Assembly: GCF_004010195.1 (NCBI RefSeq)
Contig: NC_057756.1
Coordinates: 5,813,956-5,851,697 of the forward strand
Direction of reading: 5' to 3'
DNA: 37,742 nucleotides
DNA from: Chiloscyllium plagiosum
Taxonomy: Eukaryota
Of the stretch, positions 13,119 to 36,769 are shown piece by piece. Under the pieces are notes generated by a model, which had not been told where the DNA came from, made no database searches, and saw only the letters and a list, made by a program, of their open reading frames with translations. The position numbers and the translations under genes are program-made. The stretch's first letter is position 1. The number at the start of each line of letters is the position of its first letter.

Positions 13119-15546
13119 GCTTGGGGGCTTGGGTCTGGGATTTGGACAGATCCAGTCTGAGATTTGGACAGATTTGAACAGTTTGGAGAACGAAAGATCG
13201 CAGCAGATTTAAACACTGGCTGATTAGTGTCCTAAATCTTTAAATAAAACGGAGGCGAGATAATTTATATAATTTTGGTTACTTGCGTTTGGTTAAATTA
13301 AAAATGAGGAAAATAGCTCTTAACATTGCAAAAGAGATTCTGGGGTTTGAAGATGCTTCCCAAGGTTGCCAAGAGTGTTTAGAAATACAGTGAAAGGCCA
13401 TACTTTTGGATTGAGCAAATAGGTTAGAATTGGGTCTAACAAGGGACAAAAGGAAAGCTGAAAGTGTAATGGAGCTAGTCAAGCACTTGGGTGTGTCAGA
13501 GAAACAGGAAAGTGCAGGAGAGTTAGAAAAACTTAAATTACAATTGAGGCAAATGGAGTTAGAAGATAAATAAATGGAGAGAAGAGTGATGTTAGATGAA
13601 AGAAAGAAAGAAAGAGAGAGACAGGAACAGAAACAAAGAGAGAAAGAAAGATGAGAAAAAAGAGAGAGAAAGTTCTCAGCTGAGGAAAGAAAGAAGAAAG
13701 CAAAAGGAGAAAGGGAGAGAGAATTTGAACCTCTGAAGTTGTGAATCAGTCAGGAAGGTAAACAGGATAGAGATGACGAGAGAAGGTAGCGATGTATACA
13801 AATATGTCAAAACTGCCACATCTTGATGAGAAAGATGTTGAATCCTTCTTTATTTCATTTGAAAAATCAGCTGGGCAGCTGGAGTAGTCAGACAACTCGT
13901 AGAGAAATGCTAGTTCAGACGAAGCTGGTAGGCAGAGATCGTGAGGTATTTGCCGCGCTGTCAGGTGAAGCGTCAAGAGACCATACAGATTCAAACAGGC
14001 GATTTTGAGTGCTTATGAATTGGTACCAGAAACGTATAGACTGTGATTAAGAAACAAAAAAGGAACCAGGTCAGAGTCATGTTGAGATCGAAAGAAGTAA
14101 ACATAGTCATTTTGATAGTTGGGTGCGATGGTAAGAATTTGTGTGGATGAACAGAAAGTTCAGGAAGTGATCAGAGCAGCACAGATGGCAGATGAATATA
14201 CATTAGTGTATAAGGCAAAATATAGATTCCGTCAGGAATTTCATCCTGTGAGGGATAGAAATTGGGAGAAGGGGAGATCCTATACTACAAAACAAAGAGT
14301 AGAGCACACAGGGGAAAGCTTACCACAGGTTAAAAAAAAACCCAAGAGGGGGGAAGGAGGTGAAAGGCCTCAGCTGTTTTCACTGTAATGGGGTGGGACA
14401 CAGGACATTACAGTGCTGGTGGGTCAGGAAGGACACTGGGAAAAGGGGTTTTCACTGTAATGGGGTGGGACACAGGACATTAGAGTGCTGGTGGGTCAGG
14501 AAGGGCACTGGGAAAAGGGGTTTTCACTGCCAGAAGGTGAGACACATTAAGTCACAGTGCTGGTCATTAAAGAAAGGCATTGTGGGAAAAGTGGTGGTAA
14601 AAGATGTTAAGCCAGTGGCCTTAGTGAAGGTAGTGCAGGAGACCCCACGAAGAGCCGAGGAGCTGCAGGAGAGTGCACAGCCCAGGCTGGGGCTGGGAAT
14701 GGATATAGTGCCCGATCTCTATAAAGAATCCACCTCTATGCGTAAAGTTTACTCTGAAAGAACAGGGGGAGAACGACAAGAAGTTATAATTTAGAGAGAT
14801 GCGGATCTAATTAATCTGTAATAGTAAGAAATGAACATATGTGCTCTCTCTCTGACCTCTTACCCAAGAGAGTAGTAATTTGTGGGATAGATGGACAGAA
14901 ATGAAGCGTTCCCCTCCAAAAGATCAGGTTGGAGAGCCAACTCAGGGGTCCGGAAGTAACAGTGGGAGTGATCGACAGAGTGTTAGTTCCAGGAATGCAG
15001 TTTGTTATTGGGAACAGCAGGATTTAGCAGGACCCAAGTGGGAGTGACACCCCTTGTTGTGGAGAAGCCCAAGAAAGACCAGGGAACTGAGGAGTTAAAC
15101 GAAAAGTACCCTGGAATTTTGCCAGACTGTGTAGTAACCAGATCCCACTATCATAAGTCACAGCACGAAGCAAAAATTAAAGAGAAAGACGAAGGAGTTG
15201 AGGATCAGTTAGCGGACACCCTGTTTGATGTAATGGTACAGGAACACCCTGAACAGGTGGAGGGTCAGGCAGAGGTGTTTAGGCCTGAAAGGCTAATGGA
15301 CCTACAACAGAAAGATGAGACAATAAGTATATATATATATATATTGAAGCAGACTCTGAAAAGGAGGCAGAGAATATTCCTGAGGGTTATTATCTTAAAG
15401 ACAGAATGCTACGACAAAAATGGGGACCATGGCAGGTTTAGTGCAGAGGAGAAATGGGCGGAAGTGCATCAAATTGTGTTAGTGGTAGCATCCAGACAGA
15501 AGGGGTTATGGGTAGCACATGAACTACGAGTGGGAGGTCACCCAGG
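13119..15546 (+). mobile_element. Gmr1-like Gypsy internal region (gag, CCHC knuckles, protease remnant, integrase N-terminus); defective, runs into a gap
   Basis: DEKDVESFFISFEK, LVQTKLVGR, CFHCNGVGHRTLQC, LRDxGS-like remnant near 14790, CVVTRS, then VAHELRVGGH (integrase zinc-binding region) with no RT between. Confidence 0.8.
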
Positions 15547-16609
15547 NNNNNNNNNNNNNNNNNNNNNNNNNNNNNNNNNNNNNNNNNNNNNNNNNNNNNN
15601 NNNNNNNNNNNNNNNNNNNNNNNNNNNNNNNNNNNNNNNNNNNNNNNNNNNNNNNNNNNNNNNNNNNNNNNNNNNNNNNNNNNNNNNNNNNNNNNNNNNN
15701 NNNNNNNNNNNNNNNNNNNNNNNNNNNNNNNNNNNNNNNNNNNNNNNNNNNNNNNNNNNNNNNNNNNNNNNNNNNNNNNNNNNNNNNNNNNNNNNNNNNN
15801 NNNNNNNNNNNNNNNNNNNNNNNNNNNNNNNNNNNNNNNNNNNNNNNNNNNNNNNNNNNNNNNNNNNNNNNNNNNNNNNNNNNNNNNNNNNNNNNNNNNN
15901 NNNNNNNNNNNNNNNNNNNNNNNNNNNNNNNNNNNNNNNNNNNNNNNNNNNNNNNNNNNNNNNNNNNNNNNNNNNNNNNNNNNNNNNNNNNNNNNNNNNN
16001 NNNNNNNNNNNNNNNNNNNNNNNNNNNNNNNNNNNNNNNNNNNNNNTTAACTTCCTGTGGGTAAGACACCCTGAGGCAGTTGGGAGAAAACCCCAGTCTG
16101 TTAGAAGGGAGGTTTGAGTTACAGGCCCAGAACTCAGCAGGATTGGAGTGTGATTGCGTTCGGTGCATTGTGTAAGGCCCAAGGATAGCGATGAGGCTGT
16201 CTGGGAAACATCATGAGATCATGGAAGGCCTAGGCTTGGCCATAACACTGCCCATCATTGACCATCCAGTCACATGATGAATCGGACTGGCCGTGTCTTT
16301 AATTAAGGAGACGACTGGTCTGCCATTTCCAATGGGAGGCTGGAAACAAATGTGTAAAGGTTTCTGTCTTTCCTTCACTCATTAAAAAGACGTTTCTACA
16401 TCCCCCAGAGGGCTCTTCCCACTGGAGTTATTTTAATAAACTCTTCAACGCTGGCAGAGTGATCTATTCAGTCACTTCGCCCCAGCAGTCGCTAAAGTTA
16501 GTTTACCCGGGGACCTCCTCCCCACAGCCTCCCAGCTCCAACCCCATCGAGAGAGTCAGCCCTTCAGCTCAAACTGTCCGTACATCCCCTTTCGATCTTC
16601 GTCCTCAAA

Positions 16610-21942: not shown

Positions 21943-22955
21943 CCGTGGTACATAAAGGTTTGAAGGACCTCTGCCTTGGGAGACAGGAGATGGGTTATAT
22001 GTGCTAAATGCTATTTCTGATGGGATCAAGAGTGTGTGGCTGGTCTGCTTGCATACCTAAGTGTTGTTCGTCCTTTTGTCTTTCAAGTTAGTAAAACTAC
22101 GAGGCCTATATGCTCTAAATAAATTAAAAATTGTACCTTTTACTTAATAAAAGCCTGATGACTGCAGTTGAATTGTGAGATTTGTTTCGTATTTACCGGT
22201 CTGCGTTTCATTCATTCATGCAGTATCATGGAAGCGCTGTTTCTTCAAGGGACAATGGCCCAGTTAAAAAGGTATTTAACAGGTACTTCCTAATCAGGGA
22301 ATCTATTCAGGTCCAGGAGACGGTAGGTAAGGGCTGATTAATAAGGTAAAAACAATGACTGCAGATGCTGGAAACCAGATTCTGGATCAATGGTGTTGGA
22401 AGAGCACAGTAGTTCAGGCAGGAGATGGTAGGTAAGGGCTGATTAATGTTATAATGTTCCATGGTGACTTGGTGGGGGCTGTATTGTTTCCGATATTGAC
22501 ACCTGTTCAGCAGTAGCTATGCCTGATCAGGTGTGAAAACACAGTAATGTGTTTGAAAGGGCTGTTTTAGTTAGAAAGAGTTGCTGGAATTTGGTCCATC
22601 TTGTGATAGTAAAATAGAATATAGAATTTTATGAATGAATGAATAAAGCTGTGTTATAGTGAACAACGGGTTAGTAAAGGGTTATGAATGGATGAACCGG
22701 AACCCGATGTTAATGAATACAGCATGCTGTTGAGTGATTTAGTAAAGATTACCTAAAACACAATATCTCACAGTCCCCCCCGCTCTTTGATTCCACCGAC
22801 ATCTTTCGAACAGAATCACACAATTCTTATCCTGGCTTACAGACTTTTGATAAATTGAAAACTACACTTTACAAAGAGCAAACATGCACAGTTGGCGTAA
22901 CAGTAACAAGCATCAGGGTGGTCAGTCAGTCCCTGGTCCCATTGTACTTTTTTTT

Positions 22956-23993: not shown

Positions 23994-26034
23994 ACAAGGT
24001 AGAGGTGTTCTTGTCAGAATGGTGGGTTCCATTTTCAGTTCCCTGAAGTTAGCCTTGTCTATAGCCCAACACTTAAATTCTTCCCTTTGTAGGGTTCTGA
24101 TGGACCACATTACCCATCCCTCATCGAAATAGAAAGAGGAATTCAGCTGGGTGAGGTTAATCATCCTGAGCAGCGGCTGGTCAACAAGTCCAACTATTAC
24201 TAACTCGTGGGGGCAGAATTCAAGATGTATGGGATTGGTCAAAGTTAAAAATCGCTCCGAAAGCTAGTGGTTCCAATTAAAACTGTTCGACTATAACCTG
24301 GTGTTGTGTGGTTTTTAACTATGTACACCCCAGTCCAACACCGGCATCTCCGAATCATGGGATTGGTCAGTTTGATTTCAACCCTGTCAGCTCTTGCTCC
24401 ATGAGCTGTCCTCACTGTCCCATCGACAGGGAGTTTGCTCTCATACTTCTAGGGTAGGCACGTCAAATCTACTCCTGTGCGCAAACGTCCAGGTCCCCCG
24501 CCCTCATGTTCCCATACAGCCCATCCCCCCTCTGCTAGCAGAAAGCCAGTAGGAGGGTAGAGGGCGAGCTCTTTCAGTTCTTTGTCAACGCTAGCCGTTC
24601 CTTACTCCCAGCCTCCAGGCTCTCCTCTTCCTCGTTAGACAATTTCTTTCTTTTTCCCCTTTGGCCAGTACCCCCTTGGCCCAGTGACCTTCCTTCCCAG
24701 AGAAGTGACGCTTCCCTGGTCTTTGGTCTTAGGTCTTCTGAGCATTACCGTGGGTCTGTTTCATCCGTTCTGCCTGAAGGGCTCACAATGTGGCACCCAC
24801 GTCTCTGTTGAGCCAGTCGGCTCGGTCCATGAAGTCACAGTAATTCGTCTCCCCCTCCCAATCCCACTCTGGTCTGGTGGGCTTTAACATTTTGCTGAGC
24901 TCAGGTTGAAGTCCAGCCACTAAAGTAGGCCTCAGCAGGCCGGAATTGCAACCTTCAAAATCCCTGGCGCATTTGGGATTCCTGTATTTGCACCCCGTCT
25001 CAGGGATTTCCCCACAACCGGTCTAGGCTTTCCCATGTCTTCATTGGCCTCTTCTCCGGGTGAGGCTTTTCTTTCGGTCACTTGCCTCGATTCTCAAGGG
25101 TCAGAGGTCACTGTGTGTATTTCAGTCTCCAGTATCAGCTCAACTACCTCAGAGCCATCTTCTAATCTCTGCCTGATCATCTTTCAATCTTTACTTTCCT
25201 GGTTTTAAGGGGTTGTTAAAAACGATATCAGGGATACACAAGTCCTCATCGCTTTCCCTGCTAGAGTTCCTCTGGTGCCAGGGCAGTAGCTTTGTCTTTC
25301 TGAATCACTTCCTGGATGTCTCAGGTGGCCGAGTACAAATTCTGTGCGGGCCTGGGAACCTGGGAAGAAACTGACAGGGCTGTTATCGCATCCTCCTGTT
25401 TCTTCTTCCCTTTTTTCAAGCTCCTGATCTTTCTGCAGCTGTTCACGTGCTGCGTTTAACTGCTTTTTAAGTTGGATTACTTCATGATCATGGGCTGATC
25501 AGGTCATGACTTCGTTTCTCTGGTGAATTTGTCCCATAAACGCGAGGGATCATTTAATTCTGCCTTTATTTTTCTGACGGGTGTTTGTTTCCCCCAGACC
25601 CAATTTGGGGATGATATTGTTTCCGATATCGACAGCTATACAAAGGCAGCTTGGCCTAAACGTTGCTTGGAGCAAAGGCTGATAAGGTATGAAAATGCAG
25701 TAATGTGTTTGAAAGGGTTGTTTTAAATTCGAACAGTAAAATAGAACTACAAAACCGCAGTTTTATGAATGAATGAATAGAGTCGTGTTATAGTGAACAA
25801 CGGGTTAGTGAAGGGTAATGAATGGATGAACAGGAACCTGGTGTTCATGAATATAGCATGCTGTTGAGTGATTTAGTAAAACATAATATCTCACAATTAT
25901 TAAGGATTAGATTGCAGAATACTTGGAAATCATGATAAAATAGGGTTGAGTCAGCATGGCTTTGTTATGGTGAGGTTGTGTCTGACACATTTGTTAGAAT
26001 TCTTCAAGGAAGCAAATTAGACAAAGGAGAGCCA

Positions 26035-27377: not shown

Positions 27378-28060
27378 GTGGTCATGCCCGGCAAGTGGAC
27401 ACAGAAGTGACAGAGAGGACACAATGTGGGAGACTATGAGGTTAGTGCAAAAGGCTTTGGAAATCTGAGGCGCAGAGAGACTTGGGAGATGCTCTGGCAT
27501 TGGCAGGTGCTGAATCGAAAAGTGTGGCGCTGGAAAAGCACAGCATCCGAGGAGGAGAAGTGTTGACATTTCGGGCACGAGTCCTTCATCTCCTGCTCTT
27601 CAGATGCTGCCTGGCCTGCTGCATTTTTCCAGCACCACACTTTTCAACTTTGACTAAAAAGGCTTGACATATGAGGGCTCTGGGTCTGTACTCAATGGAA
27701 TTTAGTTGGATGAGTGCGGGGGAGTCTGATTGAAACTTTAAAATACTGAGGGACCTGGATGGAGTGGACGTGGATAAGATGTTTCCACAAGGAGGAGAGG
27801 TCAGGGTGTGATGGCACAGCCTCAGAGTGCCCTGAGTTGAGGAAGAATCTCTTCAGAGAGTGGTTAATCCGTGGAACGCATTGTGGCAGAGTGCTGTAGG
27901 GGCCAAGTCATTGAGAGTATTTGAGACAGAGATAGATCAGTTCTTGATTAGTAAGGGGATCAAGTGTTACCGAGAGAAGGCAGGAGGATGGGGTTGAGAA
28001 ACAATTCACCAGGATGAAATGGTGGGGCAGTTTTCATGAGCTGAATGACCTAATTCTATC

Positions 28061-28385
28061 AGGGCAGCACGGTGGCTCAGTGGTTAGCACTGCTGCCTTA
28101 CAGCACCAGGAACCCGAGGTTGATTCCAGCCTCAGGGGACTGTCCGTGTGGACTTTGCACATGCTCCCTGGGTTTACTCCAGCCGCTCCGGTTTCCTCCC
28201 ACAATCCAAAAGTGTGCAGATTAAGTGAATTGGCCATGCTAAATTGCCCATGGTGTTGAGGGATGTGTAGGTTAGCTGCATTAGTCAGGGGGAAATGTAG
28301 AGTATTAGGGGAATGGGTCTGGATGGGTTACTCTTTGCAGGGTCGGTGTGGAGTTGTTGGGCCAAATGGCCTGTAGGGATTCTAT
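28061..28385 (+). mobile_element. V-SINE, diverged
   Basis: Head ggcagcacggtggctcagtggttagc and V-domain. Confidence 0.8.
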
Positions 28386-28543
28386 CTTATCCTAAATCTG
28401 AATGATGCTGTAGATCCCTGGCCATATGATGGTAAGTTTGATTTGACTCTCAGTGACCCAGCAGAACAATGTATAATCCCATTCCAGCTCCTGGGCACAG
28501 TGTCAAGGCAAACACTCTAATGTAGCTGGAACTGAACAACCCT

Positions 28544-28591
28544 GGTCCCAGGGTCACAACCAAACCCAGGTCCCAGGGTCACAACCAAACC
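28544..28591. repeat. Short tandem duplication with 25-bp period
   Basis: ggtcccagggtcacaaccaaacc at 28544 and 28569. Confidence 0.9.
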
Positions 28592-28707
28592 TGCTCCAGT
28601 GATGTATTGATGTAAGAGTAATGATTGGTCAGTGGAGGCAGTTTTAAACGGTGTTTTGATTTGACAGTGATCTCCAACACCCCCAACAAACCCCACCTCC
28701 TCCCATG

Positions 28708-29066
28708 GATACCGCCCTCTAACTGGATGTCCTGGTATGTTTCTGCCCAGATACCGCCCTCTGATTGGATATCCTGTTGTTCTCTGCCCAGATACCGCCC
28801 TCTGATTGGATATCTTGTTGTTCTCCGCGCAGATACCGCCCTCTGATTGGATATCCTGTTGTGCCCAGCCCAGATACCGCCCTCTGATTGGATATCCTGT
28901 TGTTCTCCGCCCAGACACCGCCCTCTGATTGGATAGCCTGTTGTTCTCCGCCCAGATACCGCCCTCTGATTGGATATCCTGTTGTTCTCCGCCCAGATAC
29001 CGCCCTCTGATTGGATATCCTGTTGTTCTCAGCCCAGATACCGCCCTCTGATTGGATATCCTGTTG
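28708..29066. repeat. 41-bp promoter minisatellite, about 8.7 units, consensus gataccgccctctgattggatatcctgttgttctccgccca
   Basis: Unit starts at 28708 (degenerate, 42 bp), 28750, 28791, 28832, 28873, 28914, 28955, 28996 and 29037 (partial). Confidence 0.97.
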
Positions 29067-29190
29067 GAGCACGCTCGGATGCGGATCGCTGATTGGTCGA
29101 GAGCTCGGACGCGGCGGTTTATTGTGGAGGAAGCAGAATCATAAAGGTGTGTGACGTCACATCCTCTGCCAACGGGTCACAGGAAATAAC
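29067..29190 (+). promoter_or_regulatory. RABAC1 proximal promoter with inverted CCAAT box, CRE palindrome and ETS-like site
   Basis: ctgattggtc (GACCAATCAG on minus) at 29089-29098; tgtgacgtcaca 12-bp palindrome containing TGACGTCA at 29150-29161; caggaaat near 29180; local CpG retention; no TATA box seen. Confidence 0.7.
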
Positions 29191-29198
29191 AGAAACAG
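29161..29198 (+). other. RABAC1: Probable untranslated first exon of RABAC1 (5' end approximate)
   Basis: Donor CAG|gtacga at 29198/29199 just after a CpG-containing promoter-like region; the ATG exon has a strong acceptor, so an upstream exon is expected. Confidence 0.55.
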
Positions 29199-29219
29199 GT
29201 ACGAATTTACATTTTCCTT

Positions 29220-29765
29220 CAGAGCCTATGGATATAATGTACACCCTATAGACACTATATAGATCTCGTGTGCATCCTAAAATACCCCTATAGATTCCGT
29301 GTGCCCCCCGTAGTTATCCTACAGATACCCTATAGGCACCATATAGAGCCAAGATACTCTATAGATACCCCAGACACTCCCTATCGACCTATATGCTACC
29401 TATAGACACACTATAGGCCCTGTACGCTAACTATAGACACCCTATAGACCCTGTATGCTAACTATAGACCCTGTATGCTCCCTATAGACTCCCTATAGGC
29501 CCTGTATGCTAACTCTAGACACCCTATAGACGCTGTATGCTAACTCTAGACCCTGTATACTCCCTATAGGCCCTGTATGCTAACTATAGACACCCTATAG
29601 ACGCTGTATGCTAACTCTAGACCCTGTATACTCCCTATAGGCCCTGTATGCTAACTATAGACACTATACAGACCCTGCATACTCCTGGCGGATACCCTAC
29701 AGACCCGTGCACTCCTGACAGACCCCGTGCGCTCCCTATAGGCACCCGTGGATGCCTGATATAGA
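29220..29765. repeat. CTATAG-based intronic minisatellite with a 71-bp higher-order repeat
   Basis: 20-bp (ctatagaccctgtatgctaa) and 11-bp (ctatagacacc) subunits; 71-bp period at 29513, 29584 and 29655; degenerate continuation to about 30785. Confidence 0.9.
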
Positions 29766-30014
29766 CTCTATGCAGTTCTCAGGAAGGGTCACTGGACCCA
29801 AACCGTTAACTCTGAGTTCCCTGCACAGATGCTGCCAGACCTGCTGACTGTTTCCAGCAATTTCTAGTTTTGCTTCAGATATGTGGAGCCCTTGGAAGAC
29901 CCATATGTACCTTTAAAATGATTCAGTGCACTCTATGGCCCTCAGTAAACCCTATAGAGATACTGGATCCTGGGTATACTCGATAGAGCCCAGCTAGACT
30001 CTATAGAGATTGTA

Positions 30015-30440
30015 CATACATCGGACAGGCAGGCAGGAAAATAGGCCCCAGGATATACCAGCACCAACTAGCCACCAAAAGACATGACCAACTATCACTG
30101 GTATCCATACACACAGATGAAGAGGGACACAGTTCAACTGGAACAGTACATCCAACCCGGGACAGGCTAAACAAAGACACACACGGGATTTCTGAGAGGC
30201 CTGGCATTCAAACAGGAACTCCATAACAAACATATTGATTTGGTCCCCATTAACCAGCCCTTGAGAAAAAGAATCTGAAGTGATATCACCTACCTCGACA
30301 GACCCAGACAGATAAATAGCAAGTGGGACAGACCACCAGCATTTCACTGGAGGCTCCCTGATGATGTTACCCATCATGGAGTCAAAACATCTGAGAACAA
30401 ACCTTCCAGCTCAGCGAGCAAACTTACAACCTGAGCCACA
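30015..30440 (+). mobile_element. PLE GIY-YIG/3' end remnant (same family as 859-1204) in RABAC1 intron 1
   Basis: YIGQ-like start (tacatcggacag), aactccataacaaacatattgatttgg homologous to 1045-1075, decayed ctgatga core near 30358. Confidence 0.7.
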
Positions 30441-30928
30441 ATGGTAGAGACTGTACAGCCTGTAGGTACACTGTAGACCCTGCGGCAGTCCTATTGAGAA
30501 TTATAGAACTGATATAAACCTTTTAGAAAACTGATTGTTTATAAACCCTTAAATTGCCTGTAGAGATAATCTGTTCAGATTCTCTAGAGACCTTTCAGCT
30601 TGCATAGAGACCCTATTGCAATCCTATTGAGAAACCATAGACAACCTATAGAACCAAATAGATATCAAAGACTCCATAGAAACCTCATACTATCTGTACA
30701 GACCTGATTGACCCAGTATAAATCCTATAGAGTACTTGTAGGTACCACACAGCGTTATGGAGAGGGCCATCTATAGACGCTGTATGAGCTGGTTTATTAC
30801 TGTGATATTGTCTCTGGTCTTCCTAACTGTGAGGAGAGTCAGTCACTGTTTTACTGATGAAGATTCTTTCTCCCAATTTGTTTCTTTGTTCTAGGTATTC
30901 CCAGCTCTCTGCTCACTTTCCGGAGGCC

Positions 30929-30996
30929 ATGAGCTCCAAGCCTGATGACGTCTTCTCCCTGACCAAAGAGGAGGAAGCAAGCGGGGTGACCGGCAG
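30929..30996 (+). CDS. RABAC1: Prenylated Rab acceptor 1 (PRA1 family), first coding exon; the exon starts at 30895 with 34 nt of 5'UTR
   Basis: Acceptor tttgtttctttgttctag ends at 30894; Kozak-like gaggccATG at 30929; reads MSSKPDDVFSLTKEEEASGVTG(R). Donor AG|gtgaag at 30996/30997 is phase 2 and joins the next exon in frame. Confidence 0.8.
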
Positions 30997-31919
30997 GTGA
31001 AGTCACGCGAACCCCTCGCTGGCAGGTCGTCTCAGCTCATGGGTTCCAGCTCTCCCTCCCGGGAAACACCCAGTTAGAAAACCAGGGGCCCTTTTAAGGA
31101 GTGGTCTGAGGGCAGGTGATGCTCTCTCCCTCTTGAATTGAAAAGTTACATTGTCCCGGAGTGTGTTAGAACATGTCTGAGCAGAATGCTTAAAAATATC
31201 TAAGCAGCCCTCAGTAAAATCGCACTGCTGCCGACAATGTACAACAGCATTTCTGTTTGAGTGAATTCTTGATAGAAAGGGGGAGGAAACAAATACTGTG
31301 TTCTTTCCCAGTGGAGACCTTTGCATCTCGGAGTCCTCTTACTTTTCACGAGCAGCCTGGGAGAGAAGGTGTTTCACACGGCTGGCAGGTGGGACTAGAT
31401 TGGGTTGGGGATCTCTGCTCGGCATGGACGGGTTGGACCGAAGGGTCTGTTTCCATGCTGTACACCTCTGATTCTATGAGAACAGTTTTGTTAAACCGAA
31501 CCCAGAGTAGTTGAGAGACTTAGCCATGAATTGACTTTCATTTATGATTTTGATTTGGTAAGAATATTTGGTTTAAACAAAACCTCAATTTAAAAGTACC
31601 TAAATTTATAGAACATAGAAGAATACAGCGCAGTACAGGCCCTTCGGCCCTCGATGTTGTGCCGATCCAAGCCCACCTAACCTACACTAGCCCACTATCC
31701 TGCTTCCACACCAGGGTTGGCGGGGGGAGCGACAGAGAGAGAGAGAGGGGGGGAGATTCCATGTGAACAACAAACGATATTTGGCCACTCAGCCCTTCAA
31801 GCGTGCTTCACCGTTACCAAAGCAGGAGACCATTCTGTCCGTCCTATCTGCACCAGCTGTTGTAATGAGCATGATAATCCAGTACTAACCTCCTGCCCTT
31901 TCCCCACGTCCCTGCCCGT

Positions 31920-33877: not shown

Positions 33878-34090
33878 GATATATATTCCGAAGATCATCT
33901 CCCAGGGCCCAGCGAAGGAATGGATAGAGAGGCGCAGGCTCACCATTCGACCCTGGGCCTCCTTCATCGACCAGAAACGTTTCTCCCGGCCGAAGAACTT
34001 TGGCGAGATGTGCAAGCGGCTGGTGAAGAACGTGGAGTACTTCCAGAGCAACTACGTGTTTGTGTTCCTGGGCCTGATCGTGTACTGTGT
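33878..34090 (+). CDS. RABAC1: PRA1/RABAC1 coding exon 2 (213 nt)
   Basis: Pyrimidine tract plus cag acceptor; reads (R)IYIPKIISQGPAKEWIERRRLTIRPWASFIDQKRFSRPKNFGEMCKRLVKNVEYFQSNYVFVFLGLIVYC(V), the PRA1 signature (IRPW...NVEYxQSNYVFVFLGLI); gtaagt donor at 34091. Confidence 0.96.
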
Positions 34091-36591: not shown

Positions 36592-36689
36592 GATCACCTC
36601 TCCGATGCTGCTCATCGCCCTGGTGGTGTTTTTCGGAGCTTGTTACATTGTTCACCTGCGGGCCTCCCAGTCTCGCCTTGTCCTGTTCG
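36592..36689 (+). CDS. RABAC1: PRA1/RABAC1 coding exon 3 (98 nt); the gene continues beyond the window
   Basis: (ct)n/pyrimidine tract plus cag acceptor; reads (V)ITSPMLLIALVVFFGACYIVHLRASQSRLVLF(G), matching mammalian VTSPMLLVALAVFFGACYILYLR; gtaagt donor at 36690; phase consistent with exon 2. Confidence 0.96.
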
Positions 36690-36769
36690 GTAAGTGCCCA
36701 TCCAGATGCTTCGTCAGCGTCGAGTAGCTGCCTGCACCACCCTCTCTGGGCAGCACAGTCACTCGGGTC

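Follow-up and report, generated by a model that had tools for sequence, protein, structure and literature searches.

Short tandem arrays of CCAAT boxes are known from a human enhancer and from a retroviral one. The human ABO enhancer contains four tandem 43-bp units that bind CBF/NF-Y and vary between alleles; the repeat has reporter activity in one cell line and a disputed effect in vivo (PMC7187371 and PMC11318969, in the portions available). Tandem E repeats of ~41 nt, 5–17 in number, with a conserved CCAAT and bound by NF-Y, are carried by the U3 enhancer of ERV-9/LTR12 (excerpts of PMC11853044 and PMC3730095). Pairs of CCAAT boxes show spacing peaks at 31, 41, 52 and 63 bp in promoters and at 24 and 41 bp in LTR12, with a minimum NF-Y spacing of 24 bp (accessible text of PMC4982600); pair spacings of 19, 24–28, 35–37 and 43 bp are also reported (accessible text of PMC4889920). 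The kind of array described below is thus already represented by the ABO minisatellite, LTR12 repeats and promoter VNTRs. An array at the RABAC1 promoter was not found in a literature search with most subscription journals outside its reach, and the available sections of PMC4973313 (on a BORIS minisatellite), PMC3583665 and PMC10329844 hold nothing on one.

Located upstream of the predicted start site of the Chiloscyllium plagiosum gene assigned to RABAC1 is a 41-bp minisatellite of ~9.0 units, spanning positions 28697–29066 of the 37,742-nucleotide stretch of DNA analysed here (the window). TRF finds a period of 41 with 8.7 copies and 93% matches, free of indels (28708–29066; score 602, far beyond chance), and alignment places the beginning of similarity to the unit near 28697; together with the unit table, this bears out the original prediction of a 41-bp array of about nine units. 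Each unit is composed of a variable 10-bp linker and a 31-bp core that holds one GC box and one CCAAT box in reverse orientation, and the eight intact units differ pairwise at 0–5 of 41 bases. Starts of CTGATTGG are found at 28761, 28802, 28843, 28884, 28925, 28966, 29007, 29048 and 29089, every step being 41 bp, just as predicted for nine CCAAT boxes at a constant period; the background of ATTGG on the plus strand in the rest of the window is 0.0012 per base. Motif scans place the boxes of the eight intact units on the minus strand (28761–29055), each preceded by AT rather than by two purines. The motif is therefore present in eight of the nine units, which are tens of bases long, and in the end unit described below.

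The unit at the 5' edge (28697–28738) is degenerate: by alignment and in its minus-strand context, it carries small insertions and a broken CCAAT box, with the GC box intact. A CCGCCC ahead of the box is present in all nine array units, and a second one, said to occur in several, is confined to three of eight linkers (at 28907, 28948 and 28989). About 100 bp upstream of the main array is a separate short repeat with a 25-bp unit in 2.2 copies (28538–28591).

Closing the array on its 3' side is a diverged end unit (29067–29098, minus strand; recognized by its matches to the unit and an RRCCAAT scan), which contains the ninth box. The NF-Y consensus is RRCCAAT, and only two boxes have two purines ahead of CCAAT: that at 29089 and a further one at 28621–28630 (minus strand, from motif scans), which is out of phase and 140 bp from the first intact box. 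As the two purines are absent from the array boxes, these may bind more weakly than the consensus-type boxes. Around the upstream box (28622–28670) are two similar 13-base words 36 bp apart, one holding a CCAAT box and the other a near miss, possibly an older duplication.

The box at 29089 was originally described as unique sequence following a largely unrelated interval, which the comparison with the unit contradicts. The 22 bases before it match the unit at 10 positions in the window, at 15 in organism B and at 13 in organism C, two of three organisms compared below; the figure for the window has a p of 0.02 by shuffling and is reached at 4 of 80 other ATTGG sites. Changes towards the unit consensus account for 6 of 8 last-interval differences in B and 3 of 5 in C, and no indel is listed in this interval in either organism despite the 8 and 5 substitutions. 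By its sequence the interval is the worn end unit of the array, so the phase of its box is a product of descent and not separate evidence of selection or design. The proposal that a two-CCAAT promoter grew by duplication of one inter-box period is a fair description of the origin. In organism B, array sequence seems to have spread into the last interval, which needs in-register pairing. Positions 29067–29088 differ from organism C at 5 of 22 bases, against 6 of 171 in the nearby intron, a faster change for which partial conversion by the array is one option.

Twenty of the 24 runs listed, from organisms A, B and C, contain part of 28400–29380; no RNA data set is listed for that span, which counts neither way. 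Four runs were compared over 28995–29375 only, with the 5' units, the upstream flank and the joint between exons 1 and 2 lying outside. The array is present at this locus in contigs of all three organisms, with differing linkers, and its length apparently differs between them. In organism A (run X1), the array contigs have a depth of 23–31 against 3.9 in the flank, a ratio of 5.9–7.9, and in organism B (X9) the ratio is 10.7–12.3; both values are rough and are not copy numbers, with one run per organism. The commonest 31-base words of run X1 are found 4–6 times in the array of the window, and this run may be the source of the window's assembly, though three places in the flank differ (29098, 29099 and 29109). 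Organisms B and C share the X1 letter at 29109, where the window may carry an error or a private allele. The commonest unit of organism B has three differences from the eighth unit of the window, all of them in the linker.

Organism C (X14) yields a 319-base contig at flank-like depth with several different linkers. Eight whole cores and a partial one precede the end unit, as read from this contig and an overlapping one across a putative join. The interval is 41 bp in eight cases and 35 bp in one, which has four letters where ten are expected (one contig, depth 9.9), and the core GC box of the last array unit carries two changes. Core changes in this organism are left uncounted, as zero-difference calls for three pieces of the 319-nt contig conflict with the record's 90–95% likeness bin. 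The collapsed high-depth contigs of A and B and the long multi-unit contig of C argue against an assembly artefact.

The gene downstream is, judged by its domain and its identity to named orthologues, RABAC1/PRA1, in agreement with the original assignment. The PRA1 domain is encoded by the exon at 33879–34090 (plus strand; Pfam PF03208, E 3e-17), which is 100% identical over 71 aa to C. plagiosum PRA1. Preceding it is the exon with the start codon (30896–30996, plus strand; ATG at ~30929), whose translation matches the N-terminus of protein P0001, and following it is a coding exon at 36593–36690 (plus strand), whose translation matches P0001 and P0003. The named Chiloscyllium RABAC1 proteins P0001 and P0002 extend beyond the exon end at 36690, the last exons being outside the window; they are without the C-terminal part of 189-residue relatives, and the models look truncated.

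Next to the array is a conserved promoter-like block (29089–29198, plus strand) that includes a predicted non-coding exon 1. The block contains what we take to be a TATA-like CATAAAG at 29140, a palindromic CRE at 29152 and an ETS-like site at 29180, and the CA at 29170–29171 is the predicted start. With B and C pooled, 1 of its 110 sites differs, against 13 of 137 intron bases (p 0.004, or 0.046 when a cluster of six differences counts as one event); that one position is changed in run X1 of organism A as well. The predicted 5' splice site of exon 1 (29197–29204, plus strand; donor at 29198) reads AG/GTACG in the window, and in B and C an A at 29202 gives the donor consensus GTAAG. The conserved block and this consensus donor are in favour of a promoter in 29089–29198 with a predicted short, non-coding first exon. 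Run X21, a single-cell polyA library of which about 2 in 100 were read, gave one read inside the array among 12,955,460 records, none on exon 1 and no spliced read at the exon 1 donor, so it is motifs and conservation that place the start site; the single read is too little for claiming upstream transcription. No divergent gene was seen by eye in 3191–26999, Rfam gave no hit at the gathering threshold in 27500–31100, and no DECA (TALE) composite motif, as defined in the available text of bioRxiv 10.64898/2026.02.16.706105, is present in 28380–29260. A bacterial promoter scan found nothing, its models being irrelevant to a vertebrate.

Other repeats are found in the window. At the start of RABAC1 intron 1 (29240–29750, fading to ~30790) are unrelated CTATAG-rich subunits of 11, 20 and 31 bp with a higher-order period of 51–82 bp, and the 5' edge of this array has indels in B and C. 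Farther upstream, two direct repeats ~3 kb apart (~22475–22750 and 25610–25880; 75% similar over 239 bases) have the look of paired termini of an old LTR-type element. The stretch at ~13200–15550 is presumably a decayed Gypsy-like retrotransposon, judged by eye, and within it is a 72-bp tandem duplication (14376–14564).

Changes among the eight intact window units are concentrated in the linker: 9 fall in the linkers, which total 80 bases, and 3 in the cores, which total 248 (Fisher p 0.0002, or 0.007 once the post hoc boundary is allowed for), and columns −3 to +15 are invariant. The NF-Y footprint and contacts, reported as −7 to +17 in the accessible part of PMC4982600, cover 25 of the 41 columns and contain 3 of the 12 changes (p 0.013). 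Counting distinct changes gives 3 of 10 (p 0.048), leaving out the edge-adjacent unit 1 gives 3 of 8 (p 0.16) and including the main unit of organism B gives 3 of 11 (p 0.025); changes that share descent are not independent, and these p values are to be taken accordingly. This bias of change towards the linker, outside the footprint, gives modest support to the predicted binding of NF-Y at the units. Identical cores between close relatives are not significant alone at 4–7% intron divergence.

Of the two GC boxes, the constant one at +9 is inside the reported footprint (available text of PMC4982600), and the free one at +20 is present in 3 of 8 units and absent from the main unit of organism B; no GC box free of the footprint is kept in every unit. 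The location of the first and the poor retention of the second favour an array of NF-Y sites over the NF-Y/Sp1 cassette originally proposed, which now appears doubtful.

With a minimum NF-Y spacing of 24 bp, the 41-bp period leaves room for one NF-Y per unit. The spacing suits adjacent NF-Y binding without showing array-wide phasing. A 41-bp unit makes 3.90 turns at 10.5 bp per turn, and the drift is about −34 degrees per unit, or ~274 degrees over eight intervals, becoming small at 10.2; among periods of 20 to 70 bp, 13 of 51 are within 0.1 turn of a whole number. Owing to this drift and to the 35-bp interval in organism C, the sites are not all on one face and the period is not without exception, contrary to the helically phased array of the original prediction.

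On balance we favour a locus-specific, promoter-born 41-bp minisatellite that would have grown by in-register unequal exchange, bind NF-Y at several units and give modest, redundant help in opening the promoter. Its plausible source is a CCAAT module of the RABAC1 promoter in this shark; the array abuts the promoter-like block, and 41 bp is among the NF-Y pair spacings reported (accessible text of PMC4982600). An old duplication would have produced two related modules 41 bp apart, and mispairing between them would then have multiplied the interval, fixing the period and, incidentally, keeping the last box in phase. Inner units would be homogenized by concerted evolution, with decay at both edges. 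Most of the activity is predicted to come from the CRE and the final box, which is of consensus type; the boxes of the array would be weaker NF-Y sites and in large part redundant, and NF-Y would mostly cover the constant GC box, without co-binding of Sp1. The array is integral and its edges are worn, as suits a promoter-born array; counting against a functional one are the lost box of the first unit and the nearby arrays without such a motif, for example at 29381–29750. If functional, the array would exemplify in-place amplification of the CCAAT module belonging to a promoter, retained in related sharks, and its alleles would form a natural series in which NF-Y dosage varies at a housekeeping gene.

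A neutral passenger is rather unlikely, and is the reading that best survives beside the promoter-born, modestly helpful array. Under it, slippage would have produced a minisatellite that took in a CCAAT box through its location and has no effect itself, and all that matters is the box at 29089 with the sites downstream. The non-consensus letter at −1 of the array boxes, the decay of the edge units, the other arrays near the locus and the p of 0.16 in the strictest footprint count would all fit such an array, as would a C-to-T change at the CpG of the linker, seen in two units of the window and in the main unit of organism B, which fits methylation. At ABO, an allele lacking three of the repeats has normal transcript levels (PMC7187371 and PMC11318969, as far as available), a further point on this side. 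Set against it are the concentration of changes in the linker, in the window and in B, the core CpG, intact in all nine window units, and the persistence of the array in three organisms.

It is improbable that the array is a selected, helically phased series of NF-Y/Sp1 sites whose copy number tunes RABAC1 expression. A period of 3.90 turns that is also a reported NF-Y pair spacing speaks for it, together with 41-bp intervals in 8 of 8 cases in the window and 8 of 9 in organism C, a last interval free of listed indels in B and C, and depth ratios that faintly suggest greater length or uniformity of the array in B. The last-box phase, however, follows from homology, the drift over eight intervals is large and many other periods come equally near to whole turns, organism C has its one 35-bp interval, and the constant GC box falls within the NF-Y footprint. 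The effect of copy number is, moreover, disputed in the closest human case, ABO (PMC7187371 and PMC11318969, in the parts available).

A bolder version, which we regard as a long shot, would have a selected NF-Y lattice over the upstream 400 bases of a housekeeping promoter, replacing nucleosomes, with the number of units setting the output. Concerted evolution would renew the linker while preserving the NF-Y footprint and a period of about 10.25 bp per turn, and by a rigid toy model the DNA, bent by 80 degrees nine or more times, would form a left-handed coil with a radius of ~10 nm. If such a lattice exists, it would be a natural test bed for the number and phase of NF-Y sites in promoter opening, and NF-Y arrays of 41–43 bp would have arisen separately in LTR12, at ABO and at RABAC1.

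A decayed LTR U3 enhancer or a dispersed satellite copy co-opted as promoter, or an assembly artefact, is barely credible: the unit length and CCAAT content resemble LTR12 E repeats and the window is rich in transposon-like sequence, but the window contains no second copy of the unit or its flanks and no plus-strand AATAAA near the array, the flanks have low, even depth in the three runs, records matching 28995–29375 at 80% likeness number only 4, 4 and 2 (A, B and C), and the contigs described above speak against an artefact. The few matching records and an array depth ~6–12 times that of the flank in A and B indicate no high-copy or large dispersed family.

Among the known systems, the LTR12 enhancer resembles the array in its units, both having repeats of ~41 nt with a conserved CCAAT, and the E repeats lie upstream of a start site as the RABAC1 array lies upstream of a predicted one (PMC11853044 and PMC3730095, as excerpted). 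LTR12 differs in being a dispersed retroviral family with GATA-2 and MZF1 as partners, whereas the RABAC1 array appears to be single-locus; by the window search, the flank depth and the matching records it does not belong to a dispersed multi-copy LTR family, no LTR features were found at the array, and the unit contains no consensus WGATAR site. Like the array, the CCAAT-box pairs of vertebrate promoters are direct repeats with preferred spacings, 41 bp being a secondary peak in PMC4982600 and 35–37 and 43 bp being given in PMC4889920; in the accessible text of both, these are pairs or small clusters in unique sequence, in contrast to a nine-unit minisatellite under concerted evolution. The MAOA repeat and other promoter VNTRs share with the array the potential of repeat units to change the density of factor sites; length polymorphism and an effect on expression are shown for MAOA, and at RABAC1 both would be predictions (PMC12776774, in the portion available). 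The likeness to the ABO minisatellite, beside which we set the array by description and not as a homologue, is that both lie upstream of a cellular gene as short tandem runs of CCAAT units, each spanning about four helical turns, with a copy number that varies between alleles at ABO and apparently between organisms here (available parts of PMC7187371 and PMC11318969). The ABO repeat, for which binding and reporter activity have been shown, has four copies or a single one 3.8 kb upstream (same sources, same parts); at RABAC1, ~9 or more units run into the proximal promoter, and the end unit is the promoter's own box.
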